Shown here piece after piece: positions 4,256 to 14,827 of a stretch of 17,793 bases of DNA. The number at the start of each line of letters is the position of its first letter. Position 1 is the first letter of the stretch. Below the pieces are notes generated by a model that saw nothing but the letters and a program-made list of their open reading frames with translations, searched no databases and was not told where the DNA came from. The DNA lies in the NCBI GenBank assembly GCA_050125095.1, contig JASFEA010000067.1, positions 1 to 17,793 on the forward strand, in the 5' to 3' direction. The position numbers were made by a program, and so were the translations under genes. The DNA comes from a bacterium. GTDB lineage: Bacteria > Arandabacterota > Arandabacteria > Arandabacterales > JALGWA01.

Positions 4256-7200
4256 GTGCGTTATACGATTGGCGACCTTATCGGCACCGGCAGCTTCGGC
4301 CGGGTTCATGAGGCGCATGACGCAGCCGGGCGGAAATACGCGGCCAAGGTCGTTGACGCCGGCGACGAAGTCGGCCTTTGCCTTTTGAGGGCTCAGTACC
4401 GACTTCTTTCGGCGGCAGACCACCCGCGCGTCGTCACCGTCTACGACCTGGTTGAGGACGGCGACGGTGCCCCGCACCTGGTAATGGAGTACCTTGACGG
4501 CCTGTCGCTTGTCGACCACGTAAGAAAAGCCGGCCTCGAGAGTCTTCCCGGCCTGGCGATCCGGATACTTGATGGCCTGAGGCATATCCACAGTCTCGGT
4601 GGGATGCATGGCGACCTGAAGCCCGACAACATAGTTGTCTGCGGCGGTGAAAACGGTCATGACGTGAAGCTTGTCGATGTCGGTTTCGACAATGCCGCCG
4701 GCGAGAAACTTCCCAGGATACAGGGGACGCTTCCCTACCTGGCCCCCGAGGTAATCCGGTCCGATCCCGCAGACGGCAGGAGCGATCTGTACTCGCTCGG
4801 GGTCGTGCTTTATGAGGCCTTGACCGGAGCATGCCCCTTTGGGGGAAATTCTCCGAGAGAGATAATGAACAGGCACCTCGAGTTCACGCCCCCGCCGCCG
4901 GGTGTCGTCAGCGGCGACGTAGACAGCGCCTGGGACGATCTCGTAATGAGGCTTCTCAGCAAAGAGCCGACGCAGAGGTTTCCCGACGCAACAGCCGCGG
5001 CATTCGAAATAGGGCGGGCCTTCGGGGATATCGACCTGGTGGCAGGCAATCTGGCGCCGCCGCGGACTCTTGCGCATCTCTGGGACATGAATGGCGGGCT
5101 CGTGGAAGAAGCCATTCTGAGCAAACCCGGCAGGGCCGTAATGGTAGGCGGCGGCCGCCATGCGGGCGTTGCCAGTGTGCTCCGCAATGTCGGCGCGCGC
5201 TTGAAATCGCGGGGGGCCGGAGTCATATCAGTAACGCTTGGGGACAGCGATCCCCTGTCCGCCCAGGTTGTCCGATCGCTGGCCGGGCATGGCGCCGGGC
5301 GGCGCCATGCTCGAGGCGACCTGCCGACGCGCGTTTCGAATCCGGAGCTTTTCTCTCTCGACTCGCTGCTCGCGGACTACGACCTCAGCCTTGGCCGGAG
5401 GCATGCCATCATTATCCGGGCCGCGTCAGAAATCGACGGCGCCGGCCTCAGAGCCATGTCCGAGCTCGCCGCGGCCAGCAGCGATTTAGTCACCGTGGTC
5501 ATCGGCCTCGAATCGGAAAGAGGCGTGGCAGACGGACCGGTGGCTGAGGCCGGGGTGGAGTTCGTCCCCATGGCGACCCTGATGAGCGAGGGAATAGCCG
5601 ACATACTCCGACGTCAATTCGGCGTCACATCCGTCCCGGCCGAACTGCTGGAGGCGCTTGTAGGGAACACGCGCGGGAGCGCCTTGCTTCTCGAGGAAAC
5701 GCTTGCTGACCTGTGGCGTAGCGGAGATCTCGGCTATAAGATCAGCAATGACGTTCTGGAATTGGAGTGGACCAGCAGGGCAGCTCTACCCGATAGTCTC
5801 AAGCAGGTTATTGAGAATAAGGTAGGCGAACTTGACGAAAATGCAGTCCGGGTGGCCGGCCTTCTCGCTCTGGCCGGAGGCAGTCTTGAGCGCAGTATAA
5901 TCGCGGAGGCCGGCGACCACCATGGCTGGGAGCCCTACATATCCGAGCTCGTCGAGAGGGACCTTGTCGATGATGCGGGCGCCGGAATGCTGCGTTTCAA
6001 TCATGCCGTGACGCGCGGCGTTATACTCGAGCGCCTGTCACCCCAATGGGCAAAGGAGACGGCCGTCCGGCTCGCCGGGGAAATCGAGAAGGCCGGCATC
6101 GGCCCCGCCGATTCCTACAGGATCGGCTCTCTCTATCAGACTGGCGGCAGACCCGCCGACGCCCTTCCCCATCTGCTGAGGGCGGGAGACTACTTCGCCC
6201 GTTTCTCAGTTATGGACGCGACTCTGGCCTACGGTCGAGCGCTGGACTGCGCAGCGGCAGGCAAAGAGCGAGCCGAAATCGAGGAGAAGCTGGGCGACCT
6301 CAAACTCGTCGAAAGTGACTTTGATTCGGCGCGGGACCATTACGAGCGGGCGTCCGGTTACAGGCCGGAGGCCGCGAGGAAACGCGCCTGGGTCGCAGCC
6401 CTGGACGGCAAGTACGAAGAGGCCGAGGAGATGCTGAAAGGGTGTGAGCGGGCCGCGGAGAAGAGGGGGGACGAGATCGAACTGGCCAGGGTGCGCGTGG
6501 ACCTGGCCTACGTTTACGCCGCCCGGGGCAAGATAGAGGAGTCGCTCGGGGTGGTGAGCGGGGCACGCAGATTCTTCGAAGAGAGGCAGATGGCCTCCGA
6601 GGCCGGTCTGGCTGCTTACCGGGAGGGCATCACTCGCATGCGGGCGGGAAAATACGGCGCAGCCACATCCGCCTGGCAGGCGGCTGTATCCCACTTCGAA
6701 GCGGCGGGCGACCGCCGTATGGCCGCGCAGAGCCTGCAGGCCATCGGTTACGCCGGCAGAAAGCAGATGGATTACCAGAGGGCGAAGCAAAACCTCAAGC
6801 GGTCCCTTGAGATTTACAGCGATCTCAAGGGGCTTTCAACCATGGCGTCGGCTTCCAACACCTATTCTCTCGTGCTGCTCGAAATGGGCGACCTGGTGGG
6901 TTCAAGGGAGTTCGCCCGCGAAGCTCTGGAGTTCAACATGATGGCCGGCCTCAAGCGCGGCGTTGTGCTGGCCCGGATGTTGGCCGCCTTGATAGAGCTC
7001 GAGGCCGGTAATTGGCGGATCGCCGAAAATGCCCTGTCGGAGGCTCAGGGAGGCATTCCGCCGGAGGATCTCTACCTGAAGGCCCAGCTGCAGCGCTATC
7101 TCGCGATGGCAAAGATAATCTCAGGTGACAGGGACGGCGCATTGGCCCTGATAAAAGAGAGTCATTCGTCGGCGCGCCTCGCCGGTGACGAGGAAGGCAA

Positions 7201-9220
7201 GTATCAGGCCCTGCTTGAAAAGGCAGTGGCCCTTCTCAGGTTCGGCGATGCCGGTGAGGCGGCTGAGGCAGCAAGAGAGGCACTCGTTGGGTTCAGCACC
7301 GAGACGTCTCTGCTGCTCACCGCGAGGGCGCAGGCTCTCCTCGGGGAGGCGTTATGCGCGGACGGCAAGGTGGACGAAGGTTTTGAGAAACTCGAGGCGG
7401 CGCGGGCCAACCTGCTCCCGGTGAGCAGGTCGCAGCACATGGGAAGAGTGTTCAAGGCCCTGGCGCGGGCATCCTATCTGCGCCGGGATCACGCGACTTT
7501 TTCCAAGTATCTGGATGAAGCACTTGAGATATTAAGGGCGGCAGGGGCGCGGTACGATTTCGCCGACGCCCTGTATCTCGGCGGCATGGAGGCGATGCAG
7601 AGGGGCGGTTTCCTGAGGGCCCGTCACTACTTCGCCGAGGCCGCGCGTATTTTCGAGAGCCTTGAAATCGATGACCTCCGCGAAAAGGTGGTGAGAGCTA
7701 TGGAGGCGGTACCGAGCGGCGAGATTGAGGTGAAGGCGGTTCATTCCCTTAGCCGGATATCACAGGCCCTGATATCGAAGCAGGACCTGGACAGCGTGCT
7801 TAATGTCGCCATGGATCTGGCCATGGACTACCTGGGCGCGGACCGGGGAGTCCTTATGCTGGCAACGGGTTCAGACGGCGACATGGTAACGGTTGCCGAG
7901 AGAAAGATGGACGAGGAGTCTCTGCGCGAGGTAGCGGACATAAGCAAGTCCATTGTCGAATCAGTTCGTTCCACGGGTGAGCCGGTAATAGCCACCGACC
8001 TCATGGACGACCCGCGTTTCAAGGACAGCCAGAGCATTCGTACGCATAACATAATGTCGGTGATGTGCCTGCCGCTCATGCGCGACAGGCGTCTGCTCGG
8101 GCTCTTATACCTCGACACAAGAGGCATACCCACCAAGTTCTCGGACCTTGAAAAGGCCTTCGTAGAAGCTTTCGCCAATCAGGTCTCGCTGGCGACGGAG
8201 AACGCGCGCACTCTCGGCGATCTGCGCATCAGCATCGACAATATGAAGGCGCGCGCGGGTGAGAGGTATCGCTACAGCAATATAATCGGGCCGGGACGCG
8301 CCATGCAGGAGGTATTCAGACAGGTCGAGAAGGCCGCGCCCAGCGATACCAACATCCTGCTCAGGGGAGAGAATGGCACGGGCAAGGACCTCATCGCAGG
8401 CCTGATACACGAACTCAGCCCCCGCAAGGATGGGCCGTTCATCGAAGTCAACTGCCCTGCCATAGCCAAGGACCTCGTGGAGAGCGAGCTCTTTGGAATC
8501 GAGAAGAGCGTCGCGACGGGAGTTGCCCCGCGATCGGGCTTTTTCGAGCGTGCCAACGGGGGAACCATATTCCTGAACGAGATCGGCGACGTTCCGCTCG
8601 CCACGCAGGTCAGGATACTCAGCGTTATCGATAAGAAGGAATTCGAGCGCGTGGGCGGGACCAGGGTAATCAAGGCCGACGTGCGTGTAATCACGGCGAC
8701 CAATCGCGACCTCAAGCACCTAATCACAAAGGGCGCTTTCAGGGAGGACCTCTATTACCGTATAAACCATATTCAGATAGGACTTCCTCCCCTGAGAGAG
8801 AGGATGGAGGACCTGGACGATCTCATAGCACACTTCATAAAGGACTTCGCCGCAAAGAACTCCAAGTCGCTGAAGCGCGTGTCGGAGGAGGCCCACAACG
8901 TACTCCGGGCCTATTCCTGGCCCGGCAATGTACGCGAGCTCGAGCGTTGTATCGAGCGGGCCGTTGTTTTTTCCGACGGTAATGAGATCCTCATAACCGA
9001 TCTTCCGGAAGAGGTGATAAAGGGGGCCAGGACGGGTCAACGCAGTGTGAAGGGGAGTACGCTTCCCGAGATTGTCGCCGATATCGAGAAAAGCGTTATC
9101 ACCGAGGAGCTGGGAAGGACGAACTGGAACAAATCCAGGGCGGCCCGAAATCTGGGCATTCACGAGGCCACCTTGCGCAAGAAAATCAAGATCCACGGCA
9201 TAGCAAAATCCCCCAACTAG
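4256..9220 (+). CDS. Multidomain sigma54-dependent transcriptional regulator: Ser/Thr kinase, degenerate STAND-like NTPase, TPR repeats, GAF, AAA+ sigma54-interaction domain, Fis-type HTH
   Basis: Kinase: IGTGSFGRV, YAAK, HGDLKPDN, DVG, GTLPYLAPE, DLYSLGVVLYE. Ala-rich helical TPR region about 6100-7670. GAF: ISKSIV...DDPRF..SQSI...SVMCLPL...LGLLYLD. AAA+: LLRGENGTGKD, VNCPAI, ESELFG, FREDLYYR, WPGNVREL. HTH: WNKSRAARNLGIHEATLRKKIK. Confidence 0.92.
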   Translation: MRYTIGDLIGTGSFGRVHEAHDAAGRKYAAKVVDAGDEVGLCLLRAQYRLLSAADHPRVVTVYDLVEDGDGAPHLVMEYLDGLSLVDHVRKAGLESLPGLAIRILDGLRHIHSLGGMHGDLKPDNIVVCGGENGHDVKLVDVGFDNAAGEKLPRIQGTLPYLAPEVIRSDPADGRSDLYSLGVVLYEALTGACPFGGNSPREIMNRHLEFTPPPPGVVSGDVDSAWDDLVMRLLSKEPTQRFPDATAAAFEIGRAFGDIDLVAGNLAPPRTLAHLWDMNGGLVEEAILSKPGRAVMVGGGRHAGVASVLRNVGARLKSRGAGVISVTLGDSDPLSAQVVRSLAGHGAGRRHARGDLPTRVSNPELFSLDSLLADYDLSLGRRHAIIIRAASEIDGAGLRAMSELAAASSDLVTVVIGLESERGVADGPVAEAGVEFVPMATLMSEGIADILRRQFGVTSVPAELLEALVGNTRGSALLLEETLADLWRSGDLGYKISNDVLELEWTSRAALPDSLKQVIENKVGELDENAVRVAGLLALAGGSLERSIIAEAGDHHGWEPYISELVERDLVDDAGAGMLRFNHAVTRGVILERLSPQWAKETAVRLAGEIEKAGIGPADSYRIGSLYQTGGRPADALPHLLRAGDYFARFSVMDATLAYGRALDCAAAGKERAEIEEKLGDLKLVESDFDSARDHYERASGYRPEAARKRAWVAALDGKYEEAEEMLKGCERAAEKRGDEIELARVRVDLAYVYAARGKIEESLGVVSGARRFFEERQMASEAGLAAYREGITRMRAGKYGAATSAWQAAVSHFEAAGDRRMAAQSLQAIGYAGRKQMDYQRAKQNLKRSLEIYSDLKGLSTMASASNTYSLVLLEMGDLVGSREFAREALEFNMMAGLKRGVVLARMLAALIELEAGNWRIAENALSEAQGGIPPEDLYLKAQLQRYLAMAKIISGDRDGALALIKESHSSARLAGDEEGKYQALLEKAVALLRFGDAGEAAEAAREALVGFSTETSLLLTARAQALLGEALCADGKVDEGFEKLEAARANLLPVSRSQHMGRVFKALARASYLRRDHATFSKYLDEALEILRAAGARYDFADALYLGGMEAMQRGGFLRARHYFAEAARIFESLEIDDLREKVVRAMEAVPSGEIEVKAVHSLSRISQALISKQDLDSVLNVAMDLAMDYLGADRGVLMLATGSDGDMVTVAERKMDEESLREVADISKSIVESVRSTGEPVIATDLMDDPRFKDSQSIRTHNIMSVMCLPLMRDRRLLGLLYLDTRGIPTKFSDLEKAFVEAFANQVSLATENARTLGDLRISIDNMKARAGERYRYSNIIGPGRAMQEVFRQVEKAAPSDTNILLRGENGTGKDLIAGLIHELSPRKDGPFIEVNCPAIAKDLVESELFGIEKSVATGVAPRSGFFERANGGTIFLNEIGDVPLATQVRILSVIDKKEFERVGGTRVIKADVRVITATNRDLKHLITKGAFREDLYYRINHIQIGLPPLRERMEDLDDLIAHFIKDFAAKNSKSLKRVSEEAHNVLRAYSWPGNVRELERCIERAVVFSDGNEILITDLPEEVIKGARTGQRSVKGSTLPEIVADIEKSVITEELGRTNWNKSRAARNLGIHEATLRKKIKIHGIAKSPN

Positions 9221-9234
9221 TGGGTGATAACCCT

Positions 9235-9433
9235 CCGTACGATCATACGAGTCGTATAATCGTACGAATCTAATCTCATGGCAGAGGACTCATGCCCTCT
9301 TAAGCCAATGCCTGTATTAATCTTTTAAATTTCAATATATTACCTCTCCTAAACATGCTTCAATCGCTTCAGCACACCCGCTTTTGAGGTCGGATCGCCT
9401 TTTCAGGTTACGAATTCTCGTATTTCTGTACGA
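9235..9433. promoter_or_regulatory. Palindromic upstream activator sites (T/C)CGTA-N6-TACGA, three copies
   Basis: CCGTAcgatcaTACGA 9235-9250, TCGTAtaatcgTACGA 9252-9267, TCGTAtttctgTACGA 9418-9433, plus a TACGA half site at 9409. The first two form a 15-bp inverted repeat with one mismatch. Confidence 0.75.
9330..9342 (+). promoter_or_regulatory. IHF-like binding site (distal)
   Basis: TTTCAATATATTA, one mismatch to WATCAANNNNTTR, preceded by an A/T tract; lies between the two UAS clusters. Confidence 0.5.
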
Positions 9434-9487
9434 ATCCGACCGAATCCGCGCATACGGCCTGCTCCTATCCCATTTTATTTGCTTAAA

Positions 9488-9500
9488 TAACAACTAGTTA
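9488..9500 (+). promoter_or_regulatory. IHF-like binding site (proximal)
   Basis: TAACAACTAGTTA, one mismatch to WATCAANNNNTTR, with upstream ATTTTATTT tract; lies between the UAS and the -24/-12 promoter. Confidence 0.6.
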
Positions 9501-9532
9501 GCGATGCAAAAAACTCGGCCTTTTTCCCGCGC

Positions 9533-9548
9533 GGGAACGGAAGTTGCC
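9533..9548 (+). promoter_or_regulatory. sigma54 (-24/-12) promoter
   Basis: gGGAACGgaagTTGCc: GG at 9534-9535, exactly 10 nt, GC at 9546-9547; resembles the consensus TGGCACG-N4-TTGC. Confidence 0.72.
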
Positions 9549-9596
9549 TTTATATAGGGTGGAAGTGTGATCGGGAGCACGAAAAGGAGGGTTTTT

Positions 9597-9824
9597 ATGG
9601 TCAAGAAGAGCTTGGTATTGTTCCTCATATTGAGCTTTGTGACCGCATTGACTTTGTTAACGCTCACAAATGCTTGCTGGGCGGATGACGACGCTGCCGG
9701 GGAAGGTGGGGATCCCGGCCAGATCAATCCGAGCTGCGAGCCTGTCACCCCGACACCAATCATCCTCAAGTTATTCTGGTACGCGGTTGGTTTGGTAGCG
9801 GGGAGTCTTGCTGCCATGCTGTAA
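9597..9824 (+). CDS. 75-aa small exported protein with signal peptide, short acidic segment and C-terminal hydrophobic helix
   Basis: Strong RBS AAGGAGG ahead of ATG 9597, preferred over GTG 9567. MVKKSLVLFLILSFVTALTLLTLTNACWA|DDDAAGEGGDPGQINPSCEPVTPTP-IILKLFWYAVGLVAGSLAAML. Confidence 0.8.
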   Translation: MVKKSLVLFLILSFVTALTLLTLTNACWADDDAAGEGGDPGQINPSCEPVTPTPIILKLFWYAVGLVAGSLAAML

Positions 9825-9883
9825 ACCGGAATAGAGCCCAGGGGCAGGGTGGTGGTGTTGGGGTGCCGGGAGGTTGAGGTGAG

Positions 9884-10603
9884 ATGACAAGCAGTGATCC
9901 GAGGATGCAGCCAGTGCTGGACCTTATGAGGAAGGCCGCGGAATGCTCGGCGAATGTCCTTGTCGAGGGTGAAAGCGGGGTGGGCAAAGCCTATTGTGCC
10001 CGCCGGATCCATGAGGCTTCGGCTCGCAGCGAAATGGCCTATGACAGCATCTTCTGCGTGCCTGAGACGCGCGCAGGGGGTGAGGGCAGGAGAATCCTGG
10101 CCCGTCTCCAGGCCGCAGAGCGGAAGTGGGGAAGCATTTATGTACGGGGCGTCGACCTGCTCGATGCCGTCAGCCAGCGTATGCTGCTGGCCTATCTTGA
10201 TTGTAGAGAGGACAGGATCGCCTCCTGCAGGGATCAGGGCTCTTGGGCAAGGCTCATTTTTTCGAGCCAGAAGGACCTATTAGAGGAGTCAAGATCGGGG
10301 CGCTTCTTAAGCCAGCTCTACATGAGGATTTCGGTTGTGAGAATCAGGATCCCGCCCTTGAGGCAAAGGGACGCCGACATAGTGCCACTCGCCAGGTACT
10401 TCGTCGGGCTCTATTCGAAGCGGGAGTCCAAGCGAATCAGCAAGCTGAGTCGCGAGGCCGAGGCGATGCTTCGCCGGTCGGCATGGGATGGAAACATTCA
10501 TGAACTAAAGAATGTTCTTAATCGTGCTGTGGTCATGGCTAACGACGGGGACTCACTCGGCCCGCGCGATCTCAGCCTGGTATTACGACGCGCAAACACC
10601 TGA
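9884..10603 (+). CDS. Stand-alone degenerate sigma54-activator AAA+ domain protein (no sensor domain, no GAFTGA loop, no HTH)
   Basis: RBS GAGGTG; ANVLVEGESGVGK Walker A, RIHEASAR, GRFLSQLYMRISVVRIRIPPLRQR, WDGNIHELKNVLNRA; in-frame stop at 9875-9877 prevents an N-terminal extension. Confidence 0.85.
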   Translation: MTSSDPRMQPVLDLMRKAAECSANVLVEGESGVGKAYCARRIHEASARSEMAYDSIFCVPETRAGGEGRRILARLQAAERKWGSIYVRGVDLLDAVSQRMLLAYLDCREDRIASCRDQGSWARLIFSSQKDLLEESRSGRFLSQLYMRISVVRIRIPPLRQRDADIVPLARYFVGLYSKRESKRISKLSREAEAMLRRSAWDGNIHELKNVLNRAVVMANDGDSLGPRDLSLVLRRANT

Positions 10604-10659
10604 GTTCTTGACATTGAATTGGCGTCGGCGAGGGACATGGGTGTTCGCAGGGAGGACAA

Positions 10660-11052
10660 GTGTCCGAGCGTGACCAGATCGAAGAGTTAATGCACTTTCT
10701 TCTGGCGAACGTGCTGGTCAATTCACTTGAAAAGGACGGATTCGAAGTCAGGGCGGACCATATCGGTGGTCTCCGGGGCGCTCCTACGCCGGTCGATGGT
10801 CTGACCCCTGACATCGAAGCCGTCAAGGGTGATGAGACCAGGCTGATCGAGGTCGAGACCCCGTCGACCGTTGGGAGCGATGAAGCCAGGAAGCAGATCG
10901 CGGCCTTCGCGGGAAAGCCGGGAGTCAAGGCCTACCTGGCCGTTCCCTATGACAGTGTCGACGAAGCCCGCAAGCTCAGGGATGAGCTCGGGGTCGAGTT
11001 CAACATCATCCCCTGTTATCCCTATGTGAACTCCATCGGTACACCCGAGTAG
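10660..11052 (+). CDS. Small hypothetical protein with PD-(D/E)xK-like (restriction endonuclease-like) motif
   Basis: RBS GGAGGA before GTG; TPDIEAVKGDETRLIEVET followed by the helix EARKQIAAF and the strand AYLAVP. Confidence 0.7.
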   Translation: MSERDQIEELMHFLLANVLVNSLEKDGFEVRADHIGGLRGAPTPVDGLTPDIEAVKGDETRLIEVETPSTVGSDEARKQIAAFAGKPGVKAYLAVPYDSVDEARKLRDELGVEFNIIPCYPYVNSIGTPE

Positions 11053-11097: not shown

Positions 11098-11151
11098 GGG
11101 GTCTGGCCCCAGCAGCTCGCTCCGGAAGCTCGTTTAATGGGGTCAGGCCCC
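11098..11151. repeat. Pair of 13-bp near-palindromes GGGGTC(T/A)GGCCCC (REP/STIR-like)
   Basis: GGGGTCTGGCCCC 11098-11110 and GGGGTCAGGCCCC 11139-11151; same GGGGTCAG core as the reverse complement of the 4138-4205 repeats. Confidence 0.65.
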
Positions 11152-11319
11152 CTTATGTCCGCATCCCGGTGTTGCGTGGAATCCGGCTCAGGCGATGTCG
11201 GACGACTTCGAGCGGCGATGGGCGCCGCTGTCAAGCCATTGACATCCCTCGCGATCTTAGGGAGAGTATTTCCAGGAGGAGTCCCCCGAGTTTCGGTTCA
11301 AAACCGGGAGGGCCCGTCT

Positions 11320-12606
11320 ATGGAAGGCACCAGCACGTCACTCGTAAGAATTCTTCACGGCACCGCTGGCAGAGGCGGTCGCCGGACCGCACTATTGGGA
11401 GCGCTGTCAATGCTCTATCTGGCAGCCTCCATCTTCTCCGGCTGCGGCGATGGGGCATCGACAGGTCCGGGCGATCAGGAAAAGGCCTGGACTTTCATGT
11501 TCTATGACCAGGCGGATGCGCCCCTGGGCTCATATGATCCAATGGAGGACTTCTGCAGAAGGGTCGCCTCGGGCTCCAGCGTGGACTTCGTCGTGCTCAG
11601 GGACACCAACGGAGACTCGGCAAGAATCTGGCACGTGACGGACGCACATATTCCTGCTCTCTGCAAAGAACTCGGTGAAGTCAACATGGGAGACGGCCAC
11701 ACCCTTTTCGACTTCATCGATTACTCCAAGACGCACTATCCCGCCCGGAGGTATGTGCTGGCGTTCTACGGCCACGGCGGGGGATGGCGGGGCGCATGCT
11801 TCGACCGCTCGAGCCAGTACGACGCTCTTACAATGGATGAAATATCGTGGGCGGTGGGGAATGCCGGCGGCGTGGACCTCACTGTTTTCACCAGCAACTG
11901 CTTCATGGGGGCGGTGGAGTCGGCCTATGAGCTGAGGAACTGTACGGACATATACGTGGGCAGTGAGAATTACTGCGGCTATGCGTTCTGGGACGCTCCC
12001 ATGGAAGACATCTGCAATGCGATGCATGCAGATCCGGACATGTCCAGTGAGGAACTCGCGCGTTTCATTGTCGATGCGGTCTGGGCTCGCAGGGACATAT
12101 GGGTCGAGGAGGACTGGTATCAGAATCTCACGGTGAGCGCGGTCTGGGCGGACAGTCTTGCCTCGCTGGTCCAAGCGCTTGATGAAGTCGCAGGCGATTA
12201 CCTCTCATGCCCCGCCAGGCTGCACGCCAGAATCAGCTGGGTCTATTCTGCCATTTGCATGTTTGGAGAAGAAGTGGTCGACGTATATCATCTGGCGCAC
12301 TGCCTGCTGAAGGTGGAGGACTGTGACAGCACCCGGACGAGGCTCGAGACCGTCAAGGAGCGGCTCTTGGACTGCGTTCTAGCCGAACGCCACGATCCCG
12401 TCTGGAGCGCGTATGGCCTGACTGTGCTCCTGCCTTACAAGTCCGAGTATGGCTACTACTGCCCCGAATACGGCGCTCCCGAAACGGCTCTGGATTTCGC
12501 CGAGGACACGCGTTGGGACGAGTTGCTCGCGGCCTATCCCTATGATTTCCCGGATGTGCCGCTCCAGGGTCCACCGGCCAGTATCCCCGTGGCCACCGGT
12601 CCCTGA
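11320..12606 (+). CDS. Clostripain-family (C11) cysteine peptidase, predicted lipoprotein
   Basis: RBS GGGAGG before ATG 11320, preferred over 11137; hydrophobic stretch then IFSG|C lipobox-like site; KAWTFMFYDQAD, GEVNMGD, YPARRYVLAFYGHGGGW (catalytic His), NCFMGAVESAYEL (catalytic Cys), YVGSE. Confidence 0.88.
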   Translation: MEGTSTSLVRILHGTAGRGGRRTALLGALSMLYLAASIFSGCGDGASTGPGDQEKAWTFMFYDQADAPLGSYDPMEDFCRRVASGSSVDFVVLRDTNGDSARIWHVTDAHIPALCKELGEVNMGDGHTLFDFIDYSKTHYPARRYVLAFYGHGGGWRGACFDRSSQYDALTMDEISWAVGNAGGVDLTVFTSNCFMGAVESAYELRNCTDIYVGSENYCGYAFWDAPMEDICNAMHADPDMSSEELARFIVDAVWARRDIWVEEDWYQNLTVSAVWADSLASLVQALDEVAGDYLSCPARLHARISWVYSAICMFGEEVVDVYHLAHCLLKVEDCDSTRTRLETVKERLLDCVLAERHDPVWSAYGLTVLLPYKSEYGYYCPEYGAPETALDFAEDTRWDELLAAYPYDFPDVPLQGPPASIPVATGP

Positions 12607-12656
12607 AGGTGGCGGCGCTGCGGACGGCGGTGTCCTGACCCGGCCTGAGAAATCCC

Positions 12657-12690
12657 TGCCAGATTTCAGCTAGAACCTGCCACATTGGCA
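12657..12690. promoter_or_regulatory. Putative activator sites upstream of dnaK
   Basis: TGCCAgatTTCAG 12657-12669 and palindromic TGCCAcatTGGCA 12678-12690, 21 bp apart (two helical turns), about 100-130 bp upstream of the -24 element. Confidence 0.55.
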
Positions 12691-12737
12691 TGGGAAGCCG
12701 CTCAATGCATGCGCTGGCCCGAAGGGTCGAATCTGTT

Positions 12738-12750
12738 TAACCGGTTGATA
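12738..12750 (-). promoter_or_regulatory. IHF binding site
   Basis: Minus strand TATCAACCGGTTA, an exact match to WATCAANNNNTTR with adjacent A/T tract, between the putative UAS and the sigma54 promoter. Confidence 0.75.
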
Positions 12751-12789
12751 AATAAATCTTTATGCTGACGATATGAGCCATAAGGGCAC

Positions 12790-12805
12790 TGGCACAACGA
12801 TTGCA
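12790..12805 (+). promoter_or_regulatory. sigma54 (-24/-12) promoter of dnaK
   Basis: TGGCACAACGATTGCA, a near-perfect match to TGGCACG-N4-TTGCW. Confidence 0.88.
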
Positions 12806-12889
12806 TTGGATAACAAGCGGAACCAAGATAACGCAAATTCGGGCCGGTCCGCACTCATGCGGGCCTTGGCCGCTAAGGAGGAGATGAAA

Positions 12890-14827
12890 ATGGGTAAGAT
12901 CATCGGAATCGATCTGGGTACCACAAACTCATGTGTCGCGGTTATGGAGGGCGGCGAGCCTACCGTGATTACCAACCAGGAGGGAAGCAGGGTAACGCCG
13001 TCTGTAGTCGCTTTCACCAAGACGGGCGAGAGGCTGGCCGGGCTTACCGCCAAGCGGCAGGCCATTACCAACCCTCAGAACACCGTTTACTCCATCAAGC
13101 GGTTCATGGGCAGGAAGTTCGGCGAGGTTGAGTCGGAGATAGGCGAAGTGCCGTATGAGGTCGTTCAGGGCCCCAACGGTGACGCCAGGGTCAAGGCGGG
13201 CGGCAAGGAGTATTCGCCTCCCGAGATCTCGGCCATGATTCTACAGAAACTGCGCCAGACGGCTGAGGACTATCTCGGCGAGAAGGTGACGGACGCGGTC
13301 ATAACCGTGCCCGCTTACTTCAACGACTCCCAGCGTCAGGCGACAAAGGACGCAGGCAAGATCGCGGGGCTCAACGTCAAGCGAATCATCAACGAGCCGA
13401 CGGCGGCTTCGCTCGCCTACGGCCTTGATAAGAAAGCCAAGGATGAGAAGATCGCCGTGTACGATCTCGGCGGCGGCACGTTCGACATCTCGATTCTCGA
13501 GATAGGGGACGGCGTCTTCGAGGTTCGTGCGACCAACGGCGACACCCATCTCGGCGGCGACGACTTCGACCAGCGCATAATCGACTGGCTTGCAGAGGAA
13601 TTCAAGAAAGAGCAGGGAATCGATCTCAAGAGCGATCCCATGGCGCTGCAGCGCCTCAAGGAAGGCGCCGAACGCGCCAAGTGCGAGCTTTCGAGCGCGC
13701 AGGAGACGCAGATCAACCTGCCGTTCATCACGGCCGACGCCAACGGTCCCAAGCACCTTAACATCACGCTCTCGCGCTCCAAGCTCGAGCAGCTTGTGGA
13801 TGACCTGGTAGAGAGGACGGTGGGGCCCTGCAGGAAGGCGCTCGAGGACGCCAAGCTGAGCCCGAGCGATATCGACGAGGTCATCCTAGTCGGCGGGCAG
13901 ACCAGAATGCCGGCGGTGCAGGAAGCCGTTAAGAAGATCTTCGGCAGGGACCCTCACAAGGGCGTCAATCCCGACGAGGTCGTGGCCATAGGCGCGGCCA
14001 TTCAGGGCGGCGTGCTCGCGGGCGAAGTGAGAGACGTGCTGCTTCTCGATGTTACCCCGCTCTCCTTGGGCATCGAGACCATGGGCGGCGTCTTCACGAG
14101 GCTGATCGAGCGCAACACGACCATTCCTTCGAGGAAGTCGGAGATATTCACGACGGCCGCCGACAGCCAGCCGGGTGTCGAAGTTCACGTGCTCCAGGGC
14201 GAGCGCGAGATGGCCGCAGGCAACAAGTCAATAGGCAAGTTCCATCTGACCGGGCTGCCGCCCGCCCCGAGGGGTGTTCCGCAGATTGAAGTTACATTTG
14301 ACATTGACGCGGACGGGATATTAAATGTATCCGCCAAGGACCTCGCGACGGGTAAGGCTCAGTCGATCAGGATCGAGGCTTCGAGTGGACTTACCGAGCA
14401 GGAAATAGATAAAATGGTAAAGGACGCCGAAGCTCACGGTGCTGACGACAAGCGCAGGCGCGAGGAGGTCGAAGCAAAGAATCGAGCCGACCAGCTCGTC
14501 TATGAGACCGAAAAGAATCTCAAGGAGATGGCCGACAAGGTTTCTGCTGATGACCGGGCCAAGGTTGAGGCGGCCATAAGCCGCACCAGGCAGGCTCTCG
14601 AGGGTGACAACATCGAGGAGCTCAAAGCCTCGACGGACGCTCTCATGCAGGTGGCCGGGCAGGCTGCACAGGCCGCATATCAGCAGGCGGCGGGCGCCGG
14701 CGCCGGTCCGGGCGCCGGTCCGGGCGCGGGCCCGGGGCCGCAGGCCGGTCCTGCGGGAGGAGCCGACGAGCAGGCGCAAGGCGGCCGGGACGAAGCTGTC
14801 GATGCCGACTACGAAGTCGTGGACTGA
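12890..14827 (+). CDS. dnaK: Molecular chaperone DnaK (Hsp70)
   Basis: RBS AAGGAGGA, then [60 protein letters not shown]-terminal DADYEVVD. Confidence 0.99.
14693..14740 (+). repeat. Coding low-complexity repeat (GAGP)n in the DnaK C-terminal tail
   Basis: ggcgccggtccg 12-mer units encoding [16 protein letters not shown]. Confidence 0.7.

Follow-up and report, generated by a model that had tools for sequence, protein, structure and literature searches.

A conserved, degenerate sigma54-activator-type AAA+ protein encoded beside a kinase-fused enhancer-binding protein in Arandabacterales

Heteromeric rings are rare among bacterial enhancer-binding proteins (bEBPs), the AAA+ activators of sigma54-dependent transcription. 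They are represented by HrpRS, FleQ/FleT, RedR1/2 and paralogues of VnfA, and the rules obeyed by their subunits have mostly been studied through engineered mutants. The closest described counterpart of the protein reported here is FleT of Rhodobacter (Cereibacter) sphaeroides, the partner of FleQ. As presented in the available portions of the papers, to which all citations in this text refer, FleT is a stand-alone sigma54-type AAA+ protein with neither an N-terminal regulatory domain nor a domain of the helix-turn-helix (HTH) type, relies for its expression on a promoter that requires its partner bEBP, and acts through hetero-oligomers with FleQ (PMC10084136, PMC11999139, PMC7277832). A comparable layout is found on contig JASFEA010000067.1 of an uncultured bacterium of the candidate phylum Arandabacterota (order Arandabacterales; assembly GCA_050125095.1), of which the whole 17,793-nucleotide stretch was analysed and is hereafter called the window. 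Here a gene at 9884–10603 on the forward strand, hereafter mini-AAA (protein P0001), encodes a protein of 239 amino acids that consists of a degenerate AAA+ core of the sigma54 type and its lid and stands alone; a sigma54-type promoter element and dyads lie on its 5' side, and the gene for a presumed partner bEBP adjoins. FleT activates jointly with FleQ, whereas mini-AAA is without the GAFTGA motif, the Walker B Asp-Glu pair, the sensor II Arg, the switch Asn and one Arg of the second region of homology (SRH). The two proteins also belong to different phyla and have different partners and regulons, and the comparison is with FleT as it has been described.

Mixed rings are likewise formed by the AAA+ domains of paralogous bEBPs in HrpR/HrpS of Pseudomonas syringae, RedR1/RedR2 and the VnfA paralogues (PMC10084136, PMC9542535). 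Unlike mini-AAA, all of these are full activators with an HTH domain and intact motifs, and none is reported in the available parts of those sources as a dedicated dead subunit. Other regulators touch the AAA+ domain of a bEBP directly and thereby damp its activity: FleN acts on FleQ and NifL on NifA, and PspA acts on PspF and HrpV on HrpS (PMC10084136 for the latter two). These four are not AAA+ homologues, whereas here a degenerate motor-domain copy is the presumed modulator. The pspA gene is transcribed from a PspF-dependent promoter, which constitutes negative feedback; the logic is comparable to that considered below, where it would operate instead through a dead activator paralogue.

In a further group, comprising VpsR, TyrR and Caulobacter NtrC, the sigma54-activator-type AAA+ domain has, like that of mini-AAA, lost the residues that act on sigma54. 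In contrast to mini-AAA, however, these proteins keep their DNA-binding and sensory domains and, as far as the partial sources describe them, act as ordinary transcription factors. TyrR is a below-cut-off NCBIfam match of mini-AAA, and VpsR is a match both in the PDB and by fold. Degenerate AAA+ subunits that sit beside catalytic ones, and may donate an arginine finger, are known from LAP1/LULL1 with Torsin and from the clamp-loader delta-prime subunit; they differ from mini-AAA in belonging to unrelated families and to eukaryotic or replication contexts. To our knowledge there is no case of a non-catalytic AAA+ ring partner for sigma54 activators. Searches of an open-access library (subscription journals lay outside the scope) for inhibitors devoid of HTH or GAFTGA and for kinase-TPR-GAF bEBPs yielded no description of a family like mini-AAA, and no paper there joined a pseudo-ATPase with AAA+ and sigma54. 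Judged by its sequence, mini-AAA differs from FleT, from PspA/HrpV and from VpsR/TyrR in being a stand-alone, catalytically dead paralogue.

The mini-AAA reading frame contains no internal stop and is preceded by a ribosome-binding site, GGGAGG, at 9868–9873, 10 nt on the 5' side of the ATG; both points agree with a preliminary description of the locus. The Pfam matches are Sigma54_activat (PF00158, residues 3–154, 64.3 bits against a cut-off of 20.2) and AAA_lid_14 (PF25601, residues 160–236, 66.8 bits), with no others. The chain ends three residues past the lid match, and the receiver, GAF, PAS and HTH_8 models are all unmatched, as expected from the earlier statement that regulatory and HTH domains are missing. 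Many bEBP equivalogs were returned from NCBIfam, all of them sub-threshold. With the same Sigma54_activat model the AAA+ domain of the neighbouring giant activator scores 200.8 bits, against 64.3 bits for mini-AAA. BLASTP aligns this domain to mini-AAA residues 8–230 at 30% identity (E 4e-29), with a 14-residue gap at the activator's ESELFGIEK... segment. The closest solved structures by sequence are NtrC1, ZraR, NtrC4, LuxO and PspF. An AlphaFold2 (AF2) model of mini-AAA has a predicted local distance difference test score (pLDDT) of 90.8 and a predicted template modelling score (pTM) of 0.84, and its top fold matches are NtrC1, PspF, ZraR, LuxO, FlrC and VpsR, with template modelling scores (TM) of 0.73–0.84.

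The motifs were compared in an alignment of 44 members of the mini-AAA family with 16 canonical bEBP AAA+ domains from the same genome. The Walker A motif is kept and reads GESGVGK at residues 29–35 (nucleotides 9968–9988; canonical GExGTGK). The loop that carries ESELFG/GAFTGA, known as L1, is gone: all 44 aligned members have a 12-column gap against the canonical ESELFGHEKGAFTGA, placed in the window at about 10064–10081, and in the AF2 model an unbroken helix runs across residues 66–78, where the L1 region is deleted. In functional activators the GAFTGA motif of L1 touches sigma54 and promoter DNA (PMC7175178). At the Walker B site (10136–10156) the canonical FLDEIGE is replaced in mini-AAA by YVRGVDL (IYVRGV at residues 85–90), and the family carries R or K and G or D at the positions of the Asp-Glu pair. 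The Walker B Glu (E108), together with the switch Asn, couples ATP hydrolysis to the L1 and L2 loops (PMC7175178). The switch Asn is replaced as well, the canonical NCAA becoming FC in the family (Phe57 in mini-AAA), and at L2, where the canonical domains read EFxRVGG, the family is not conserved.

The remaining catalytic sites follow a similar course. Sensor I (10259–10270) changes from the canonical AATN to FSSQ, with SSQ in place of ATN, and sensor II (10490–10507) from GNVREL to GNIHEL at residues 203–208, the sensor II Arg being His206. In the SRH (10304–10330) the segment FREDLYYRL reads FLSQLYMRI at residues 141–149 (FLSQLY(L/M)R in the family versus canonical FREDLYYR), and the first Arg is replaced by Leu142. 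The second Arg, R148, is retained and corresponds, by alignment with NtrC1, to NtrC1 R299 (PspF R168), which reaches the gamma-phosphate of the neighbouring subunit in trans (PMC7175178). The state of Walker A, the loop, Walker B, the FREDLYYRL segment and sensor II had been read in the same way in the preliminary description. By descent and predicted fold, mini-AAA belongs to the AAA+ superfamily of sigma54 activators; to judge from its residues, it fails the activator hallmarks of GAFTGA, Walker B, sensor II and HTH.

Among 5.8 billion proteins searched, 66 relatives of mini-AAA were recovered (P0003–P0068, 181–269 amino acids, E 1e-133 to 1e-46), after which the next-best matches were canonical bEBPs, from E 1.8e-28. 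Throughout the 44 aligned members, which are 43–90% identical to the query, G29, E30, G32–K35, P157–R160, W201, G203–I205 and E207–L208 are invariant; GESGVGK, PPLR and W-x-GNI-x-EL are constant motifs, excepting Ser31, which is conserved in at least 90%. The derived residues F57, S127–S128 of SSQ, Q144, R148 and H206 are also conserved in at least 90% of members. The altered state is far beyond chance: family-wide, the same changed motifs are either invariant or kept in 90% of members or more.

A decaying duplicate of an activator, retained as a pseudogene without function, might be expected to lose many catalytic motifs and to score poorly with Pfam, as mini-AAA does beside its neighbour (64 versus 200 bits). 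We give this explanation next to no probability, and it is refuted by the results on selection and conservation. The ratio of nonsynonymous to synonymous substitution (dN/dS, NG86) is 0.089–0.172 in all seven pairs compared, which points to purifying selection; in the pair with the least saturation, dN is 0.046 and dS 0.47. Similar ratios were obtained for the giant activator (0.09–0.19) and for the next gene downstream, ORF130 (0.06–0.17). The derived motifs are constant across members of 44–90% identity, synteny is kept, contigs from RNA libraries cover the gene, and relatives carry at this locus a stand-alone mini-AAA of 237–269 amino acids instead of a full-length activator, so that the homologue search and the selection analysis both speak for a maintained gene.

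The distribution of the gene was followed in 18 genomes of the phylum, 16 from the order and 2 from another family (class-level relatives). Of the 16 genomes of the order, 15 carry one copy each that scores at family level (at least 327 bits); neither of the other two genomes has one. In each of the 15 the frame is intact, at 241–289 codons, and the gene always stands alone. In the matchless genome, which is 57% complete, the activator gene stops 236 bp from the contig end and the region downstream is unassembled. The gene order purA, kinase-TPR-GAF-AAA+-HTH activator, mini-AAA, ORF130, dnaK and a DUF2007 protein is found in 10/10 related loci. Orthologues of the giant activator (38.9–64% identity) lie directly 5' of mini-AAA in all ten, two of them clipped by a contig end. 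In the two class-level relatives neither the kinase-fused activator nor mini-AAA was found.

A search for longer proteins, restricted to 420–2000 amino acids, gave no protein above 125 bits, that is, none at the level of the mini-AAA family, which is weak evidence of absence. In a profile search of 1.84 billion representatives, the sole family-like matches were P0055, P0068, P0169 and P0166, the last a fragment. The long high-scoring proteins in this search were rejected as mini-AAA fusions; they are tandem AAA+ proteins in which the scores of two or three domains are summed, and all have canonical domains except P0160. This unrelated protein of 567 amino acids has two tandem sigma54-type AAA+ domains, both without GAFTGA and both with LDE and GNVREL kept, and by its sequence is another type of putatively sigma54-blind AAA+ architecture. 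P0169 (254 amino acids, 37% identity) is a more distant member of the mini-AAA family with the same kind of substitutions. A locus search of metagenome contigs with P0169 gave three short, spurious matches and no neighbourhood for its lineage. A locus search by the GESGVGK pattern was discarded, the pattern being too general for synteny: all 80 loci kept were those of canonical bEBPs at 30–37% identity.

The origin of the family was addressed in a tree of AAA+ domains that comprised the mini-AAA family, nine activator orthologues and the genome's 15 other AAA+ domains. All mini-AAA members fall in a single clade (Shimodaira–Hasegawa-like approximate likelihood ratio test, SH-aLRT, 100); its stem is long, at 1.35 changes per column, and the branches inside it are of ordinary length. 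This pattern suggests that an ancient duplication was followed by a burst of change and subsequent constraint. We read mini-AAA as a predicted pseudo-ATPase with a bEBP AAA+ domain as its remote ancestor; its losses are fixed and under purifying selection.

The presumed partner of mini-AAA is the giant activator encoded at 4256–9220 (+), a protein of 1654 amino acids in which Pfam recognizes a Ser/Thr kinase, TPR, GAF, a sigma54 AAA+ domain, a lid and a Fis-type HTH. An rpoN gene was found in the genome. The L1 loop of the activator reads SVATGV and not GAFTGA (residues 1418–1423, about 8507–8524), with Ala in place of Phe, and VATG is constant in an alignment of nine orthologues; such a loop is unusual for a functional sigma54 activator. 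The kinase domain (4256–4990) reads HGDLKPDN and DVG, where the kinase consensus has HRD, with Arg at the position of the Gly, and DFG. All nine orthologues share the Asp, Lys and Pro of the first motif and both the Asp and the Gly of the second.

The spacer of 660 bp between the activator and mini-AAA is highly structured and conserved across 11 loci. Tandem inverted repeats of the form CGTAY-N4-RTACG lie at 9236–9249 and 9253–9266 and are predicted to be enhancer-like (upstream activating sequences). A proximal dyad, CGTATTTCTGTACG, is found at 9419–9432, about 100 bp 5' of the -24 element, and its core TCGTA...TACGA is almost invariant in the 11-locus alignment. Each of the 11 loci has one to three CGTAY-N4-RTACG dyads in the intergenic region between activator and mini-AAA, and none has any elsewhere. 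Across the genome the pattern has 15 matches, versus about 11 expected, and the sole cluster of three is at this locus. The distance from distal to proximal dyads is 164–167 bp in 9 of 11 loci (window 9236–9432; L093–L101), and this constant spacing suggests a fixed nucleoprotein geometry. A candidate IHF-like site, TAACAACTAGTTA, follows at 9488–9500 (+); the IHF consensus is WATCAANNNNTTR, from which it departs by one mismatch, and the alignment shows conservation at its CAA and TT columns.

A sigma54-type -24/-12 element, GGGAACGGAAGTTGCC (P1), is placed at 9533–9548 (+). Its GG and TTGC are constant in the 11-locus alignment, and 7 of 10 related loci have at most two mismatches to the consensus. 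A loose sigma54 pattern allowing up to three mismatches is not enriched across the window (55 matches versus 61 expected); weight rests only on the perfect site and on conservation across loci. A consensus scan for sigma70 promoters and terminators was uninformative. The arrangement of a stand-alone gene with a sigma54-type element and dyads on its 5' side, next to the gene of a partner bEBP, is the FleT-like feature of the locus, and from it we infer that P1 depends on the neighbouring activator.

A second candidate promoter precedes dnaK, which lies at 12890–14827 (+; true start ATG 12890, ribosome-binding site AAGGAGG at 12876–12882, Pfam HSP70 911.8 bits). The element TGGCACAACGATTGCA (P2, 12790–12805, +) matches the sigma54 -24/-12 consensus perfectly and lies 84 nt 5' of the dnaK start. 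It is the sole match without mismatch in the window and one of 11 in the genome, where base-composition arithmetic predicts about 3. An element of this type, with 0–2 mismatches, is found directly 5' of dnaK in 10/10 related loci (L093–L102). Chaperone expression in the order thus appears, from promoter sequence, to depend on sigma54. A regulon survey predicts sigma54 promoters at genes for DnaK and GroEL in some phyla, as far as its available portion extends (PMC12316311), which means that control of dnaK by sigma54 is in itself no novelty. About 100 bp 5' of the dnaK -24 element is a dyad of a second type, TGCCACATTGGCA (TGCC-N5-GGCA, 12678–12690), which is conserved in the 11-locus alignment. 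Genome-wide this pattern has 76 matches versus about 99 expected, and only TGCCACATTGGCA has a sigma54 site of at most one mismatch no more than 300 bp away. In total the locus has two sigma54 promoters, two dyad types and one HTH-bearing bEBP; together its features suggest sigma54 control of chaperone expression.

Metatranscriptome contigs from four runs map to the region at 95% identity or above. One contig of 1205 nt from run X5 spans 9853–11048, and hence mini-AAA and ORF130, with 47 differences; a second from the same run spans 9738–9882, and a 372-nt contig from run X8 spans 10416–10787. Fragments of dnaK are present in all four runs. No contig lies over 8800–9667 or 11404–12922, a distribution that says nothing on transcript ends. 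Mini-AAA is apparently expressed.

We tentatively favour, short of real confidence, a reading in which mini-AAA is an ATP-binding, non-hydrolysing and sigma54-blind subunit that joins the ring of the neighbouring activator and damps it as feedback. The Walker A Lys and the Arg that acts in trans are kept, and the cis-catalytic residues and L1 are lost, a combination that fits a subunit able to bind nucleotide and to fit into a ring, yet not to hydrolyse ATP or to see sigma54. Mini-AAA, produced under a sigma54 promoter that shares a locus with the activator, would retain ATP unhydrolysed, leave sigma54 unengaged, and insert into or cap the AAA+ ring of the activator through the ordinary protomer interfaces. 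R148 could complete the site of the adjoining protomer while no remodelling loop is contributed, and the ATP-locked, loop-less position would interrupt the cycle of hydrolysis and remodelling. Since the gene sits behind a sigma54 promoter in the activator locus, its accumulation would feed back on the activator; the outcome would be negative feedback on the activator, hence on the mini-AAA operon and possibly on dnaK. Damping is favoured because a loop-less, ATP-locked protomer should break the cycle and because inactive partners poison RedR hetero-oligomers: inactive forms of RedR inhibit the active partner, according to the available part of the source (PMC10084136).

Multimer modelling of mini-AAA with activator residues 1335–1600 gave a score of 0.42 (0.39, 0.42 and 0.47), in comparison to at most 0.01 for three controls. 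The mark used was passed by 58 of 80 solved complexes and by 2 of 110 mismatched pairs; at scores of 0.60 or below there are only 7 of the 80 solved complexes, together with both of the mismatched pairs that pass. The result weakly supports association. The runs share at least 78% of their contacts, and the partner pLDDT is at least 83. The preliminary description had proposed a nucleotide-binding poison of the activator hexamer. The residue pattern and the feedback layout are consistent with this proposal, co-assembly is weakly supported by the models, and the effect may be poisoning or that of a co-activator or switch of the FleT kind.

Several observations weigh against damping by a dead subunit. 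Solved bEBP rings exist, so the weak pass of the complex model may only reflect likeness to homo-oligomeric bEBPs. The effect may be of either sign, and the nearest analogue, FleT, is a positive co-subunit. It is from the P-loop alone that we infer ATP binding, and the residue following the P-loop Lys varies in the family. The P1 element of the window has three mismatches to the consensus. The dyad at dnaK is a different one, so that P1 may lie wholly outside the activator's control. Contigs from RNA libraries can include DNA, and show no transcription start, strand, level or single transcript. The AAA+ tree gives the mini-AAA clade no resolved sister and leaves an origin as a duplicate of the neighbour unsupported; in identity mini-AAA is no closer to the neighbouring activator (30.6%) than to the bEBPs of its own genome (27–35%).

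Conceivably mini-AAA could instead be a co-subunit like FleT, required by the ring or changing its specificity, with a net effect that is positive or a switch of promoter class; we consider this somewhat unlikely. As an example, the activator alone would fire P1 with its CGTAC dyads and a mixed ring would act at the dnaK promoter with its TGCC-N5-GGCA dyad. FleT lacks an N-terminal domain and HTH and shows FleQ-dependent expression, and the FleQ/FleT hetero-oligomer reads a different promoter class, as given in the available text (PMC11999139, PMC10084136, PMC7277832). The presence of two conserved sigma54 promoters and two dyads with a single HTH-bearing bEBP would suit such a switch, and the retention of R148 in at least 90% of members would allow an adjoining catalytic subunit still to hydrolyse. 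The complex model (0.42 versus 0.01 for the best control) lends it the same weak support, with the same caveats. However, mini-AAA, having neither the L1 loop nor the hydrolysis residues, has no activating capacity to add, and it has no DNA-binding domain that could explain an altered choice of enhancer. The analogy with FleT is architectural only, and in the RedR system, so far as it is described in the partial source, inactive partners inhibit.

It is also conceivable, and in our judgement quite doubtful, that mini-AAA works chiefly with the product of ORF130 (10660–11052, +), a protein of 130 amino acids with a PD-(D/E)xK nuclease-like fold that is encoded directly 3' of mini-AAA in 10/10 related loci. 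The two might form, for example, a nucleotide-sensing AAA+/PD-(D/E)xK pair, with ORF130 as a dyad-binding repressor or anti-enhancer that mini-AAA regulates. The genes adjoin in 11/11 loci, 25–56 nt apart, and single contigs span both in RNA libraries of two runs. In near relatives ORF130 is more conserved than mini-AAA, at 77–93% identity (P0122–P0149; one further at 72%) versus 67–90%. It has the fold of a DNA enzyme without the catalytic Lys: E24, D51, E64 and E66 are invariant in the alignment, and no catalytic Lys follows. The CGTAY-N4-RTACG dyads are palindromes resembling restriction sites, and pairs of AAA+ and PD-(D/E)xK proteins exist, McrBC being a weak fold match at rank 41. Against this, the fold matches of the ORF130 model (pLDDT 88.1) are weak, with XisH, NucS/EndoMS and Hjc at E around 1e-3 and TM around 0.5, and DNA binding by ORF130 is only supposed. 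A partnership of this kind would also leave the sigma54-activator type of the AAA+ domain and its tie to the kinase-bEBP unexplained.

An extension of the dead-subunit reading places it in a wider circuit. Upon entry into the hexamer of the kinase-TPR-GAF-bEBP, the dead subunit would end the response after a time, or else would redirect the ring away from the promoter with CGTAC dyads and towards the dnaK promoter with its TGCC dyad, thus acting as a pseudoenzyme enhancer switch in a sigma54 proteostasis circuit in which the TPR repeats of the activator may additionally read the EEVD-like tail of DnaK. We offer this scheme as a possibility on the unlikely side. Feedback from the DnaK tail to the TPR repeats is conceivable since the adjoining activator carries such repeats. 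The eukaryotic Hsp70 tail is EEVD, which the DnaK tail here resembles: the DnaK C-terminus (14792–14827) is ...AV[D/E]ADYEVV[D/E]-COOH in 11/11 loci.

If mini-AAA is a natural, conserved dead subunit, it would serve as a ready probe of how many active protomers a ring needs and of the effect of ATP-locked positions, and pseudoenzyme paralogues would join the known modes of regulating enhancer-dependent transcription. The locus offers a compact, testable circuit from an uncultured candidate phylum, with a eukaryote-like kinase-bEBP fusion, two sigma54 promoters and a dnaK whose product has an EEVD-like tail.

The first gene of the sigma54-type operon behind P1 is a small open reading frame of 75 codons at 9597–9824 (+), with a ribosome-binding site, AAGGAGG, at 9584–9590. 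A homologue with an ATG start is found in 8 of 11 loci, and the remaining three have GTG at the aligned position. The N-terminus of the product resembles a signal peptide and the C-terminus is hydrophobic; the chain also has an acidic stretch and a GDP motif, and no match to it was obtained in Pfam or NCBIfam. Between its stop and the ribosome-binding site of mini-AAA lies the 9-mer CCCAGGGGC (9837–9845, +), which is identical in 11/11 loci; the leader that contains it has no Rfam match and no significant RNA fold (z = 0.12). A gene for a clostripain-family (C11) peptidase at 11137–12606 separates ORF130 from dnaK in the window and in the locus from the same genus (L093), and was not found in the other nine loci examined. 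The ORF130 protein has 36 homologues, only one of which has a precomputed Pfam domain, and its relatives carry the JGI label 'Holliday junction resolvase'.

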